From NCBI RefSeq assembly GCF_016026235.1, contig NZ_CP065613.1: a DNA stretch of 64,000 nt; one strand, given 5' to 3'. Origin of the DNA: Escherichia coli (GTDB lineage: Bacteria > Pseudomonadota > Gammaproteobacteria > Enterobacterales > Enterobacteriaceae). Numbering within the stretch: position 1 is the first letter of the stretch; every line of letters starts with the position of its first letter. The position numbers were made by a program. Below, one piece after another: positions 36,001-42,000 of this stretch.

Positions 36001-39000
36001 GAAAACGTTTCAAACAGGCTGCTGCCGTAGCCGATGCCGCTGCACTTTCTCGACATCCATGCACTGCAACGCCTTTGTCGGGCAGGCTTCAACACAGGCC
36101 GGCCCCGTCTCCCGATGCCAGCACAGATCGCACTTAATCGCCCTCGCCTTTTTGCGCGAAGAAACGACCTCCATCGCACCAAACGGGCAAGCCAGCATAC
36201 AGCTTTTACAGCCAATGCAACGTGTTTGTTCAACGAAAATATGCCCATGTTCGCGGCTTATCGCGTCAACAGGGCAGACATTCGCGCACGGTGCATCTTC
36301 ACACTGATGACAGGCTACTGCCGTGGTCCAGCTGTGGTCTTTAATGACACGAATACGGGAAATAAACTCGTCTGGTGACAACGCAGCGCAATCCTGATTC
36401 TCCTGATGCGACACTGCGCAAGCCACTTCACAGGTACGGCAACCGATACATTTCGTCGCATCCGCAATAATAAACCGGTTCATGATCACTCCTTTGCACT
36501 AAAACAGCAGAGTGCCAGAGAGCGCGTCCCTACTGCTTTGATCCAACGAAGGAAATGTTAAAGTTTTGGCACTTGTCCAAAGCGTTATGTGATCGCGCCC
36601 TGGTCGTCCCTGACAGTAAACCCCAGTTCATTAGAAATAGCCTGCGCGGTTTCACGCAGAGGTTTCAGGAGATTTTTCTCTCCCACCTGTTTCAGACGTG
36701 ATGTCGAAAGCGAAATCGACACGGCACTACGAATTGATATGTTCCTTGCTGTAACGCCGCTTCCACGCTGCTGGCGTTAAACCGGTGTGTTTGCGAAAAA
36801 TCTGCCGGAAATAGCCAACGTCATTAAACCCGCACAACGCCGCCACTTCCGTGAGCGATCGCGCTTCGCTAATTAACAGCTTTTCGGCTTCGCGCACCCG
36901 CTGGCGATGGATTGCTTCTGTTAACGTCAGATGAAACACCCACCGGTAGACGCGCCCAAGATAATCGGCATTGCAGTACAGCTCGCGGGCCAGAAGCGCC
37001 GTAGAAAGCGGGCGATGATATTGCGTGCGGATCAGTTTCTGCGCTTTCCAGGCAAGGGTGGTGCCTGCGCCATCGGCCTGTTCATCAAGACGCGCGTCAC
37101 GGGTGAGCTGCTGCAAAATGAGCAGCACAATAAACTCCAGCGCCGGAGTGCGTTGATGCTTTTCCTGTTCGCTTAAGAACTGGCGAAACAGGGCCACCAG
37201 CGCCTGCGGATCGACAACCTTCGTTTGTTGCGGCACGCTAAGATGAGTAAGCCAGCGAGGGTCGTTGTCCGGCGCTTTAACCTCAAAATGCAGCCAGTAA
37301 AATTTGAGATCGGCGGGAAAATCCTCCACCCCAACATGTTGTCGGTTCGGCCAGAGTAATAAACTCTCTCCCGCATCGACCAGAAATATCCGTTCTTCTT
37401 CCTGAATCGTTAATCGACCTTTTTCGACAAAGATAATTTCCCATGACTCCAGCCGCCTTGCAGGATGCCTCCCTACGCCACGGGAAATAAATAATCCACC
37501 ATTTTGCACTTTAATCGGTAACGTCATGGATAATTCGAGCATTGATATGTAATTTCCCGCTTATTCATTAATGATTAAACACATTACCTTTTGATTATTA
37601 ATCAAAAATATTAATTTCACCTGATCCATTTCACACTTTTAAATTCAGGTCGGAATCGTCACCTTTTTTTACTCTTTTCTCGCCTTGTTGATATTCCCGT
37701 TCACGGCAGAATTAATCAGGTCATTTCAATAAAACTAAAAATTGCTCCCTATTCACGAGGAATATCTATGACCTCTACACCGATTACTACCGCTGATATC
37801 GCTAAAGGTAAAATTGACGATGCGTTATCTGTACGGGAAAAAATAGGCTACGGCCTGGGTGACGCAGGCGGCACCGTAATAACTTGCCTGATCATGAATT
37901 TTCTCACCTTTTTCTACACCGACGTTTTTGGATTAACTCCGGCGCTGGTTGGCACGCTGTTTATTGCACTGCGCGTGTTTGATGCCATCTCCGACCCGGT
38001 GATGGGCGTCATTGCCGACCGGACGCAAAGTCGCTGGGGGCGCTTTCGCCCGTGGCAGCTATGGATTGCCATTCCCATCGGCATTATCGGCATCCTGACG
38101 TTCACCGTGCCAGATGCCAGCATGGGAGTAAAAATCGCCTGGGCGTTCGGTACTTACCTGCTCCTTTCAGTCGGTTATACCGCCATCAACGTACCGTACT
38201 GCGCGCTGATCAACACCATGACCACCCGCCACAATGAAGTGATCTCCTGCCAGTCCTGGCGATTCGTTCTCTGTGGCGTAGCGGGATTTCTGGTTTCGGT
38301 AGGCTTACCGTGGATGGTAGATCTCTTCGGTCAGGGTAATGCCGCGCGCGGCTATCAATTGGGCGTCGGCGTGCTGTGCGCCATTGCCGTGGTGATGTTC
38401 CTGTGCTGTTTTTTCTGGGTTCGTGAACGGGTGCCACTCTCCACAATGGGGAAATTTACCCTGCGCGAACATCTTGCCGAGCTGCGGAACAACGACCAAC
38501 TGCTGCTGATGCTGGTCATGTCTTTCCTGCTGATTAACGTCTTTAACATTCGCGGCGGTGGGTATATGTACTTCATTACCTACGTCTTACAAGGCAGTAC
38601 GGGCTACACGTCGCTGTTCTTCACCATGGTCACCTTCGCCTCCATTATCGGCTCGGTGATTGTCAGCCCGTTAACGCGGCGTTTCGATACCGTCAAAATT
38701 TACTACTACACCAACCTGCTCCTCGCTGCGCTGGCGGTGTTGATGTGGTTCCTGCCCTCCGGCCCGGCTTATCAAACGCTGTGGCTGGCGGTGATCCTCG
38801 GTAATGGCGTAATTCTTGGCTTCACATTGCCACTGCACTTCTCATTGATGGCCTTTGCCGATGACTACGGCGAGTGGAAAACCCGCGTACGTTCTTCCGG
38901 CATGAACTTCGCCTTCAATCTGTTTTTCATCAAGCTGGCCTGGGCCTCCAGCGCCGGGATCATCAGCCTGCTGTTTATTTTTGTCGCCTACCAGCCAGGC

Positions 39001-42000
39001 GTGGAAAACCAGACCACCAGTTCGCTTGGCGGGATCGCGGCGATGGAAACATTACTGCCTGCGCTATTCCACCTGCTGCTGGCAGGGGCGATCCGCTTTT
39101 GCAAACTCAATAATCCTATGATGTCACGCATAGCTACCGACCTGCGTCAGCGTCATGTACAGCCTTAAGGAGCACAAGATGAACATTTCGGAAGTCGATC
39201 TGCATAAACTGACGGTCAGCGATCCGTTCCTCGGTCAGTACCAACAACTGGTCCGCGACGTGGTGATTCCTTATCAGTGGGATGCCTTGAACGATCGTAT
39301 CCCAGAAGCGGAACCCAGCCATGCGATTGAAAACTTTCGCATTGCCGCCGGACTTCAGGAGGGTGAATTTTACGGGATGGTGTTTCAGGACAGCGACGTC
39401 GCCAAATGGCTGGAAGCGGTAGCCTGGTCGCTGTGCCAGAAGCCGGACGCCGAACTGGAAAAAACCGCCGACGAGGTAATCGAACTGATCGCCTCCGCCC
39501 AATGCGAAGACGGCTATCTCAATACTTACTTTACGGTAAAAGCACCCGAAGAACGCTGGAGCAATCTGGCGGAGTGTCATGAACTTTACTGCGCAGGTCA
39601 TCTGATTGAAGCCGGAGTCGCCTTCTTCCAGGCCACGGGAAAACGGCGCTTGCTGGGGGTCGTTTGCCGCCTGGCCGATCATATCGACAGCGTATTTGGT
39701 CCAGATGAAAGTAAGTTACACGGTTATCCTGGTCACCCGGAAATTGAACTGGCACTAATGCGCCTGTATGAAGTGACTGAAGAGCCGCGCTACCTGGCGC
39801 TGACGAACTATTTTGTCGAACAGCGTGGTGCGCAACCGCACTATTACGACCAGGAATATGAAAAGCGCGGGCAGACATCGCACTGGCACACCTACGGCCC
39901 GGCGTGGATGGTGAAAGACAAAGCCTACAGCCAGGCACATTTGCCCCTTGCGCAACAGCAAACCGCCATCGGTCACGCGGTACGTTTTGTCTATCTGATG
40001 ACCGGCGTCGCGCATCTCGCGCGTTTAAGTCACGATGACAGCAAGCGTCAGGACTGCCTGCGGCTGTGGAACAATATGGCCCAGCGTCAGTTATATATTA
40101 CCGGCGGCATTGGCTCGCAAAGCAGCGGCGAAGCGTTCACTAGCGATTACGATCTGCCGAATGACACGGTATACGCTGAAAGTTGCGCCTCCATCGGCCT
40201 GATGATGTTTGCCCGACGAATGCTGGAAATGGAAGGCGACAGTCAATATGCCGATGTGATGGAGCGCGCACTGTACAACACCGTGCTCGGCGGCATGGCG
40301 CTGGATGGCAAACATTTCTTCTATGTGAATCCGCTGGAAGTACATCCAAAATCGCTGAAATTCAACCATATCTACGATCACGTTAAACCGATCCGCCAGC
40401 GTTGGTTTGGCTGCGCTTGTTGTCCGCCAAATATCGCCCGCGTGCTGACCTCGATTGGTCATTATCTCTACACGCCGCGTGAAGATGCGTTGTATATCAA
40501 CATATACGCAGGAAACAGCATGGAAGTGCCGGTAGAAAATGGCACGCTGCGCCTGCGGGTTAGCGGGAACTATCCGTGGCAGGAGCAGGTGACGATTGCG
40601 GTTGAATCGCCCCAGCCGGTACGTCATACGCTGGCTTTACGTCTGCCGGACTGGTGCACACAGCCGCAGATCATATTGAATGGGGAAGAGGTCGAGCAGG
40701 ATATTCGTAAAGGGTATTTGCACATTACCCGCGAATGGCAGGAGGGCGATACGCTGAATCTGACTTTGCCGATGCCGGTACGCCGCGTTTACGGTAACCC
40801 GCTGGTGCGTCACGTCGCCGGAAAAGTGGCGATTCAGCGCGGCCCGCTGGTGTATTGCCTGGAACAGGCCGACAACGGCGAGTCACTGCATAATCTGTGG
40901 CTGCCCACCGATGCGCCATTTACGACATTTGAAGGCAAGGGATTGTTTAGCCATAAGATCTTAATCCAGGCACCGGGTTACCGGTATGAACAGAGCAATC
41001 CAGAGCAGCAACCGCTGTGGCATTACGACAGCGCGCCAGCCAAACGCCAGCCGCAAACTCTGACCTTTATCCCGTGGTTTAGCTGGGCTAACCGGGGCGA
41101 AGGCGAAATGCGGATCTGGGTGAATGAGGAAAAGCATCGCCATCCGGAGGTTGGATAAGGCGCTCGCGCCGCATCCAACGTAGGGAGCACATTGCCTGAT
41201 GCGACGCTTAATACGTCTTATCAGGCATACGAGTCGGTGCGAGAGCGTAGGCCAGCCGCACCGACATCCACCGGTGAATTAAAAACGCCAGCTCACGCCG
41301 GTGACAAAGGTAAAACTCTCATTACGATCAATCATCGGGCTGTCGGTAACCTCTTCCGGCAGCTCGCTGTATCCTGCGCTCGCCATCAATACGACGTGCT
41401 CTCCTATCGGGTATTTTGCCGTCAGGCTGACATAGGGCACCCAGGCATCCTGCGCGGAATAACTTGCCAGACCGCTACGACGGGACTCACTCTCTGAAAT
41501 GCCATAGTAATAGTCACTGAAATTCTCGTCATAATAGAGAACGCCCAGCGCAGGTGTCAGCGACAGACGACCTATCTGCATTTTGTGGAATACCGATAGC
41601 TCCCCCACCCAGCCGTTGCTGTTATCCAGAACGTCCGCAGCTGCAGAGGCTTTCACGGTTCCCCAACGCTCGTGGTGATACCAGGCAACCCCCGCCATAG
41701 CCGTACTATCACGCTTATCAAGCTGTTGCATGACATAATCGTCATTATCGGCAGGGTCAAATTCCAGCGGCATCCAGGATGCGGTCAGGCTAAGTTCATT
41801 TTTTTCACTTTGCGACAGAATAAAACCTAACGTGGTCTGACGAACATAAAAAGTATCACCTTCATAGCTAATCAGCGGAATTGCCTTTGTATTTTCATTA
41901 TAACCGCGATAAGGTGATTCATTATAAGCCGCACCGGCACCAATGGATAATTCAGGAGCAGTTGCGCTTGCCATAAAAGGCAACGCAAATAACGCCACAA

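Follow-up and report, generated by a model that had tools for sequence, protein, structure and literature searches.

A conserved regulator–symporter–GH127 cassette between ysaA and yiaT in Escherichia coli: a candidate scavenging module for plant β-L-arabinofuranosides

The stretch of DNA analysed here (the window) comprises 64,000 nucleotides of the Escherichia coli contig NZ_CP065613.1 (assembly GCF_016026235.1), and within it the interval between ysaA (36010-36489, minus strand) and yiaT (41279-42019, minus strand) is wholly taken up by a cassette of three genes. An AraC/XylS-family regulator gene (36727-37542, minus strand, 271 aa) is divergent from a gene for a GPH-family glycoside:cation symporter (37768-39168, plus strand, 466 aa), which is followed on the same strand by a GH127 gene (39179-41158, 659 aa). 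These genes, their families and both flanks had been named in an earlier note made from the sequence alone, and the open reading frames (ORFs) and matches to Pfam and TIGR00792 bear that description out. Read from its first ATG (39155), the GH127 ORF is 667 aa in length; a Shine–Dalgarno sequence (AAGGAG, 39167-39172) precedes the ATG at 39179, the start also used by RefSeq, and the gene is translationally close-coupled to that of the transporter. None of the three ORFs is interrupted in the window, and the annotations of the other genomes sampled show them as intact too. Between the GH127 gene and yiaT lies a REP-like palindrome (41193-41227, unstranded), an inverted repeat with 14-nt arms that is likely to serve as a transcript end or stabiliser; the motif GCCTGATGCGACGCT occurs five times in the window, against 0.21 occurrences expected by chance.

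The hydrolase belongs to an enzyme family that is already known. Its assignment to GH127/DUF1680 holds in Pfam, where the catalytic domain PF07944 (E = 1.2e-111) is matched together with the GH127 middle and C-terminal domains (PF20736, 1.3e-23; PF20737, 3.4e-25), the three spanning residues 20-657 of the 667-aa ORF. The closest match in the PDB is 4qjy, the Geobacillus enzyme Ara127N (782 bits, 54% identity over 630 aligned residues), a likeness from which an (α/α)6-barrel fold would be expected; HypBA1 of Bifidobacterium longum (3wkw) is matched with 511 bits and 43% identity. The residues E318, E334, C336, C414 and C415 (659-aa numbering; codons within 40130-40423, plus strand) align with E322, E338, C340, C417 and C418 of HypBA1, respectively, which predicts E318 to be the acid/base, C414 the nucleophile and E334, C336 and C415 zinc ligands (for the roles of GH127 catalytic residues, see PMC8106489). 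Indeed, the ExC and CACCPP motifs, which the earlier note had read as a Cys3-Glu zinc site and cysteine nucleophile, align with E338/C340 and C415/C417/C418 of HypBA1, and the acid/base glutamate is kept too; the loss of the catalytic Cys or Glu, which would have told against that reading, was not seen, C414 and E318 both being in place. In HypBA1 the zinc-ligand quartet is presumably E338/C340/C417/C418. The two proteins are identical at all HypBA1 positions checked (H142, E143, H149, H194, H270, E322, E338, C340, Y386, C415, C417 and C418), and the catalytic motifs are kept in every orthologue examined (80/80). Neither a signal peptide, nor a hydrophobic N-terminus, nor a transmembrane segment was found in the GH127 protein, which is predicted to be a cytoplasmic β-L-arabinofuranosidase acting at the non-reducing end (EC 3.2.1.185).

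The transporter is a member of the GPH family by TIGR00792 (332.2 bits, cutoff 231.35), with about 11-12 distinct hydrophobic segments and acidic residues of the MelB-type cation site. No characterised GPH member was matched above its curated cutoff: the closest named subfamily is YagG (355 bits, cutoff 610), followed by the YicJ-like model PRK11462 (325, cutoff 836), MelB (207, cutoff 456) and UidB (191, cutoff 528). Full-length alignment to MelB revealed R52, D55 and D59 to be kept and D19, N58 and D124 to be changed, and the sugar-site residues are unlike those of MelB.

The regulator combines an N-terminal cupin-type ligand-binding domain (AraC_binding, residues 26-132, E = 1.3e-9) with a C-terminal double helix-turn-helix (HTH_18, residues 184-263, E = 1.6e-18), and so falls within the AraC/XylS family. 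The AraC equivalog model gives a weak full-length match (59 bits, cutoff 208), and the protein is not AraC itself. A PDB sequence search returned HTH domains only, the ligand domain having no close solved relative. Phylogenetic footprinting of the stretch between the two divergent genes, over 68 Enterobacterales loci, points to a conserved, PBAD-like control region with a putative CRP site, activator site and promoter. The CRP-like site (GATC-N4-TCACA-N-TTT, 37620-37639, plus strand), assigned to CRP from its consensus spacing, is kept in at least 90% of the 68 loci and is centred approximately 92 nt upstream of the putative transcription start. A second conserved block, GTCGGAAT..TC..C.TTTTT.TACT......CTTGTTG (37649-37690, plus strand), abuts and overlaps the -35 hexamer, a position typical of AraC/XylS activators, and is likely to be the binding site of the cassette's own activator. 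The candidate promoter of the transporter–hydrolase operon (37685-37712, plus strand) consists of a -35 hexamer TTGTTG (37685-37690), a 16-nt spacer and a -10 hexamer CAGAAT (37707-37712), and would place the transcription start near 37719. A consensus promoter scan of the intergenic region returned no site; the promoter proposed here is too weak for such a scan, as is expected of one that depends on an activator, and it is put forward on the conservation of its hexamers across genera.

Membership of GH127 does not in itself fix the substrate, since the family also takes in 3,6-anhydro-D-galactosidases and an aceric-acid hydrolase. The literature searched held neither experimental work on the cassette in E. 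coli nor biochemical or genetic data on any enterobacterial member, in agreement with the note's remark that no substrate had been assigned in this species; it gave only a pan-genome study of IBD isolates, in which the GH127 gene co-segregates with invasiveness and its function is given by homology (PMC11879602). It is conceivable that the enzyme acts on something other than a β-L-arabinofuranoside, such as an aceric-acid fragment of RG-II, a 3,6-anhydrogalactoside or another furanoside, and feeds another pathway. The polyspecificity of the family would allow this, as would a symporter that is not the equivalog of any named GPH carrier and a regulator with an only distantly AraC-like ligand domain, and the sole NCBIfam match of the protein is to the aceric acid hydrolase model NF049879. 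That match, however, falls short of the cutoff (456.2 bits, cutoff 950), lies mostly in residues 260-657 and does not make the protein an equivalog. Among solved structures, both of the closest relatives are β-L-arabinofuranosidases, whereas the members with other or unassigned activities score far lower (BT1003, the aceric-acid hydrolase 5mqo, 316 bits; 6ex6, 385 bits). The identity at every HypBA1 position checked points the same way, as does the lack of downstream catabolic genes in the cassette, because its product must then suit core metabolism, as L-arabinose does. A different substrate is considered unlikely, although it is the likeliest of the alternatives.

The order regulator–transporter–hydrolase is kept in about 70 Enterobacterales species, where the cassette mostly sits between sgbE or ysaA and yiaT-yiaU. 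Beside relocated cassettes (L012, L040, L056, L074, L083 and the Bradyrhizobium loci L075/L078), no consistent CAZyme or arabinose-gene partner was found. The possibility that the cassette came in horizontally as an island was rejected, given a GC content similar to that of the flanks, the absence of mobility genes and synteny across genera. Amongst 5,426 complete E. coli genomes, a near-full-length cassette is present in 2,311 (approximately 43%), with the Shiga-toxin lineages O157:H7 and O145:H28 among the carriers; K-12-type relics occur in 2,461, and neither cassette nor relics in about 650. The junction found in the window is shared by 426 genomes, all of them cassette carriers, leaving by subtraction about 1,885 with the yia-sgb operon and the cassette in tandem. 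Presence at the ysaA-yiaT junction is variable in this survey, which does not support the mutual exclusion with the yia-sgb operon that the earlier note had implied. As it has been lost from 57% of complete genomes, the cassette is dispensable in many niches, and it could be argued that the E. coli cassette no longer matters functionally and is decaying towards the loss seen in K-12, all the more so as regulator annotations are occasionally truncated (H154, for example) and the neighbourhood is prone to deletion (L004 lacks yiaTUVW, L005 lacks sgbE and L001 carries an IS1-associated deletion). This is improbable in the light of intact ORFs, conserved regulatory blocks and retention across so many species, and of dN/dS values of 0.07-0.12 within species and 0.03-0.15 between genera (regulator 0.05-0.15, symporter 0.03-0.09, GH127 0.03-0.12), which are indicative of strong purifying selection on the cassette.

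The history of the locus can be read from what each lineage has left behind. The fullest order in E. coli is ysaA-yiaJ-yiaKLMNO-lyxK-sgbHUE-[AraC-GPH-GH127]-yiaT; indeed, in strain PK-F-10122 (locus L002) the yia-sgb operon and the cassette are neighbours within the ysaA-yiaT interval. The yiaJ-sgbE operon is missing from the window, as the note had stated, with the exception of a 141-nt stub that it overlooked, the 3' end of yiaJ (36585-36725, minus strand), a pseudogene of the IclR-type regulator of the operon. The same stub is present in FDAARGOS_943 (99.9% identical), where RefSeq annotates an incomplete IclR regulator. Using a three-way comparison of the window, the yiaJ 3' end of PK-F-10122 and the sgbE-AraC spacer of PK-F-10122, it was found that the alignment of the stub to full-length yiaJ ends at a 4-nt microhomology, cggc (36722-36725, unstranded), 1 nt from the regulator stop codon; these four letters occur both in yiaJ and just past the sgbE terminator. 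The junction is identical in Escherichia sp. E1V33, and neither an integrase nor an IS nor an att-like repeat was found there; a single microhomology deletion of approximately 9 kb removed the 5' part of yiaJ through to sgbE in the window lineage. With the exception of E1V33, no yiaJ stub was found where ysaA lies next to the regulator gene in other genera, so that the absence of the yia-sgb operon there cannot be called a recent deletion. K-12 holds the reciprocal evidence: between sgbE and yiaT lie a 116-nt piece of the regulator 3' end (window 36715-36830) and a 190-nt GH127 fragment (window 40852-41041), named ysaC and ysaD, respectively (PMC12361893), which are non-functional remains of the cassette. 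Two stretches of the window, 36831-40851 (4,021 bp) and 41042-41251 (210 bp), are missing from K-12; the presence of the cassette in K-12 at this site, which the note had held would overturn its account, is thus found for the relics and not for the cassette itself.

The tandem arrangement in PK-F-10122, the K-12 relics and the yiaJ stub in the window mark the window and K-12 as independent deletions from a state in which both units were present, and the stub and relics make it unlikely that this state is derived and not ancestral. The view taken in the earlier note, that the yiaJ-sgbE operon and the cassette are alternative alleles swapping at a replacement hotspot, might draw on the cassette filling the window's interval alone, on the four configurations of that interval in E. 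coli and on ysaA or sgbE adjoining the regulator gene across genera, but it is refuted by the tandem genomes and the reciprocal relics, is at odds with a simple deletion junction and can be given very little credence. The cassette is instead to be seen as a long-established and widely conserved companion of the yia-sgb operon and not its replacement, and as a self-contained, ancestral enterobacterial scavenging module.

Gene integrity, family membership, catalytic residues, conservation and locus history are established here, the window lineage having lost yiaJ(5')-sgbE whilst K-12 lost the cassette. On this basis we consider it probable that the cassette imports and splits small plant-derived β-L-arabinofuranosides. 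Upon relief of catabolite repression (through CRP-cAMP) and in the presence of an inducer, the AraC-type regulator would activate the PBAD-like promoter, and the symporter, driven by a cation gradient, would take in a small β-L-arabinofuranoside. The best guess for this substrate is β-1,2-arabinobiose or another short β-Araf glycoside, which may stem from extensins, arabinogalactan proteins or pectin and be freed by other microbes or plant turnover. In the cytoplasm the GH127 enzyme would cut the non-reducing β-L-Araf residue, using the zinc-held nucleophile C414 and the acid/base E318, and the L-arabinose freed would enter araBAD. We know of no E. coli enzyme that releases β-Araf oligosaccharides from polymers, and the supply would hence hang on other organisms.

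Such a module has parallels in E. coli and beyond. The melAB/melR, uidABC/uidR and yicJI systems, scavenging modules of two or three genes, follow the scheme of a regulator, a GPH symporter and a cytoplasmic glycosidase under catabolite control, and MelR is likewise AraC-type; the cassette shares this scavenging logic but differs in its zinc-cysteine GH127 hydrolase and in a carrier that falls below the YagG, YicJ-like, MelB and UidB cutoffs. With HypBA1 it would share an intracellular GH127 cysteine glycosidase for an imported small β-L-Araf glycoside, with the catalytic cysteine, the glutamate acid/base and the Cys3-Glu zinc site all kept. The B. longum system, however, consists of the GH121 enzyme HypBA2, an ABC importer and HypBA1, whereas the cassette lacks a GH121 enzyme for release, relies on a cation symporter where B. 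longum has an ABC importer and its binding protein, and is predicted to be controlled by an AraC-type activator via a CRP-like site; up to 7 kb from the cassette, none of the loci inspected holds an extracellular GH121 or an ABC importer with a β-Ara2-binding protein. Ara127N (G. stearothermophilus T6, 4qjy/4qk0) is of the same three-domain length class, with the E-x-C and C-A-C-C-P-P motifs, and is reportedly intracellular (according to Lansky and colleagues, 2014), as predicted for the GH127 protein of the window. Its gene lies in a large Geobacillus arabinan-utilisation cluster with ABC transporters and α-arabinofuranosidases, whereas that in the window is partnered only by the symporter and regulator.

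For E. coli, this means quite possibly that cassette-positive strains, O157:H7 and O145:H28 among them, take up and hydrolyse plant β-L-arabinofuranosyl oligosaccharides directly. These might come from extensins, arabinogalactan proteins and pectin, for instance through bifidobacterial HypBA2. If true, this would run counter to the published position that L-Araf is not directly accessible to E. coli (PMC8489885); a study of O157:H7 Sakai, in which ara genes were induced by arabinan oligosaccharides, states that the species lacks a route to L-Araf. It would also open to cassette-positive strains a niche for cross-feeding, both in the gut and on plants, that K-12-type strains do not have. If the cassette is active, standard metabolic models based on K-12, which has only ysaC and ysaD, miss the carbon source concerned. 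For annotation it matters that the ysaA-yiaT interval is shaped by reciprocal deletions and not by allelic replacement. If active, the cassette would be a strain-variable means of using a carbon source in E. coli, and it may bear on competition with bifidobacteria for the sugars of plant glycoproteins and on how STEC persist on leafy vegetables.

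The window carries three long ORFs between ysaA (36010-36489, minus strand) and yiaT (41279-42019, minus strand) which, with their family matches, bear out the three-gene cassette described in the earlier note. They encode an AraC-type regulator of 271 aa (36727-37542, minus strand), a GPH symporter of 466 aa (37768-39168, plus strand) and a GH127 hydrolase, the plus-strand frame of which runs from 39155 to 41158; in RefSeq the products are labelled AraC-family regulator, MFS transporter and GH127 protein. The hydrolase gene is taken to start at the ATG at 39179, because this begins 6 nt past an AAGGAG that overlaps the transporter TAA stop and because RefSeq uses the same start; the length of 659 aa noted before matches it. 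Coding GC (0.53-0.57) is like that of the flanks, and the only AT-rich part is the 225-bp divergent spacer.

The cassette had been read as a replacement allele of yiaJ and the yia-sgb operon (yiaKLMNO-lyxK-sgbHUE) of K-12. The ysaA-yiaT interval was surveyed in 5,426 complete E. coli genomes and takes four configurations. The first is a tandem arrangement, ysaA-yiaJ-yiaKLMNO-lyxK-sgbHUE-[regulator-GPH-GH127]-yiaT, as in strain PK-F-10122. In the second, that of the window, everything from the 5′ part of yiaJ to sgbE is absent together with the sgbE terminator hairpin. What remains of yiaJ is a 141-nt stub, and the junction, 1 nt off the regulator stop codon, falls at a microhomology of 4 nt (cggc, 36722-36725); the yia-sgb operon is missing here, as the earlier note had it. 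In the K-12 type the operon is intact and the cassette is cut down to 116 nt from the regulator 3′ end (window 36715-36830) and 190 nt of the GH127 gene (89.5% identity; window 40852-41041), which are the pseudogenes ysaC and ysaD located between sgbE (yiaS) and yiaT (PMC12361893). In the fourth, exemplified by DS566, sgbE adjoins aldB, and the cassette and yiaTUVW are absent. Cassette coverage reached at least 80% in 2,311 of the 5,426 genomes, 426 of which have the window junction (O157:H7, O145:H28, O169:H41 and O78 strains among them), and the K-12-type relic arrangement was found in 2,461; by subtraction, ~1,885 genomes hold both units and ~650 are without cassette trace (641 lacked any match in the relic-arrangement search). 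The tandem arrangement and the relics in both deletion types therefore identify the cassette and the operon as neighbours that are lost independently, not alternative alleles: the replacement reading is refuted by the PK-F-10122 gene order, by ysaC and ysaD, and by the yiaJ stub. The cassette is variably present in E. coli but does not exclude the operon, and K-12 holds its relics at this position but not the full cassette.

Several further features of the locus were observed. Escherichia sp. E1V33, of a cryptic clade, has a yiaJ-stub/regulator junction identical to that of the window (L006:4313-4552 against 36490-36726) in surroundings only ~89% identical, so the deletion allele is either a very old cross-species polymorphism or was exchanged by recombination between lineages. 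In Escherichia whittamii (L005:3624-4549) sgbE is absent and 31 nt separate the end of sgbU from the regulator stop; this third independent deletion reaching the sgbE/regulator boundary suggests that the boundary is deletion-prone. In the ~650 cassette-free genomes the sgbE-aldB gap is 46 nt, yiaT-yiaU-yiaV-yiaW having gone with the cassette (L004:23983-26971 in DS566), and DS566 has a Fic-family gene between aldB and yiaY. The closest relative found, FDAARGOS_943 (L001:8790-9954), is 99.9% identical over the cassette; its yiaT is truncated by an IS1A element and yiaU through most of yiaY is absent, whereas yiaT-yiaW, aldB and yiaY are all intact in the window. REP-type palindromes (GCCTGATGCGACGCT) occur five times in the window (31164-31178, 36401-36415, 41193-41227, 45077-45091 and 62225-62239) against 0.21 expected by chance, and the copy 3′ of the GH127 gene falls within 41042-41251, a small stretch that K-12 has lost in its second deletion. 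The lost hairpin after sgbE probably once ended the regulator transcript too, and the next terminator-like hairpin on the minus strand lies within the yiaJ stub (36641-36660), so that the regulator mRNA may extend towards ysaA.

Beyond E. coli, 80 loci were recovered when a single genome was scanned for each species, and ~70 of them keep the regulator-GPH-GH127 order and orientation; these include Citrobacter, Klebsiella, Raoultella, Enterobacter, Kluyvera, Leclercia, Lelliottia, Salmonella diarizonae, Pantoea, Buttiauxella, Hafnia and others. Most lie between sgbE or ysaA and yiaT-yiaU; at copies sited elsewhere, no other CAZyme or pentose gene was found travelling with the cassette. The three catalytic motifs are present in 80/80 orthologues. 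Across the three genes, dN/dS in pairwise comparisons was 0.03-0.15, whether the copies came from E. coli alone or from different genera. Within Enterobacterales the cassette is ancient, and its loss in E. coli is variable. Bradyrhizobium has a hydrolase of ~71% identity without the partner genes. The Enterobacteriaceae gut isolate MGYG-HGUT-00110 has a second GPH-GH127 pair (L083:4219-8956), ~70% identical to the first and directly preceded by a 364-aa ORF that is not the AraC-type regulator; the constant unit is therefore the transporter-hydrolase pair only.

The GH127/DUF1680 assignment of the hydrolase is upheld by its Pfam domains (catalytic, E = 1e-111; middle, 1e-23; C-terminal, 3e-25) and by its closest relatives in a PDB sequence comparison, Geobacillus Ara127N (4qjy; 782 bits, 54% identity) and Bifidobacterium longum HypBA1 (3wkw; 511 bits, 43% identity). 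Residue-by-residue alignment to HypBA1 also confirms the Cys/Glu motifs noted earlier: E318 and C414 align to the acid/base E322 and the nucleophile C417, and E334, C336 and C415 to E338, C340 and C418, the other residues of the zinc site; the roles of the HypBA1 residues are those given in PMC8106489. HypBA1 H142, E143, H149, H194, H270, Y386 and C415 are identical as well. An enzyme with another GH127 substrate appears unlikely: family members of different or unassigned activity score far lower (6ex6, 385 bits; BT1003/5mqo, 316 bits), and the NCBIfam equivalog for aceric acid hydrolase gave 456 bits where the cutoff is 950. The sequence lacks a hydrophobic N-terminus and any membrane segment, which predicts a cytoplasmic hydrolase.

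The transporter scores above the curated GPH model (332 bits, cutoff 231) and under every cutoff of the YagG, YicJ-like, MelB and UidB models; in alignment it keeps MelB R52, D55 and D59 but not D19, N58 and D124. AraC_binding and HTH_18 domains were identified in the regulator, which is not AraC itself (59 bits, cutoff 208). Three blocks are shared by 90% or more of the sequences when the divergent spacer is aligned across 68 loci: GATC-N4-TCACA-N-TTT (37623-39), the spacing of which is that of the CRP consensus; GTCGGAAT..TC..C.TTTTT.TACT......CTTGTTG (37649-90), leading into a −35-like TTGTTG; and, 16 nt beyond, a −10-like CAGAAT (37707-12). A predicted transcription start near 37719 would place the centre of the CRP-like box at about −92 and the long block at about −70 to −30. 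The araBAD promoter PBAD has such a layout, which the putative cassette promoter resembles. No strong promoter was found in the spacer by consensus scan, which fits an activator-dependent promoter, and control is probably exerted through the CRP-like box and the activator block. Upstream of the GPH start codon and past the promoter blocks, the leaders of Citrobacter, Klebsiella, Pantoea and Mangrovibacter (L007, L026, L028, L035, L040, L067) have an inserted CCCG...CGGG hairpin that is absent from Escherichia; it may represent either a leader structure or the insertion of a small palindrome.

With its sensor, cation-coupled glycoside carrier and predicted cytoplasmic glycosidase, the cassette is like melAB, uidABC and yicJI, and its product must be something that core metabolism already uses. 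The carrier would take up short β-L-arabinofuranosides, such as the β-1,2-arabinobiose that HypBA2 of B. longum releases outside the cell (PMC8106489), and the hydrolase would free L-arabinose for araBAD. We regard this reading as reasonably probable, the β-L-arabinofuranoside being the best guess because of the enzyme's nearest relatives and fully conserved active site. In line with the earlier note, the literature searched gave no experimental substrate assignment in E. coli and no experiment on any enterobacterial member. This GH127 gene is one of those that co-segregated with invasiveness in a pan-genome study of IBD isolates, where its function rests on cited HypBA1 work (PMC11879602). 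In a plant study of O157:H7 Sakai, E. coli was said to be unable to access L-Araf directly; arabinan oligosaccharides induced ara genes, and the cassette goes unmentioned (PMC8489885). The functional annotation is supported, and the cassette adds an uncharacterised member to an enzyme and transport scheme that is already known; the useful yield is a corrected history of the locus and a directly testable, strain-variable phenotype.
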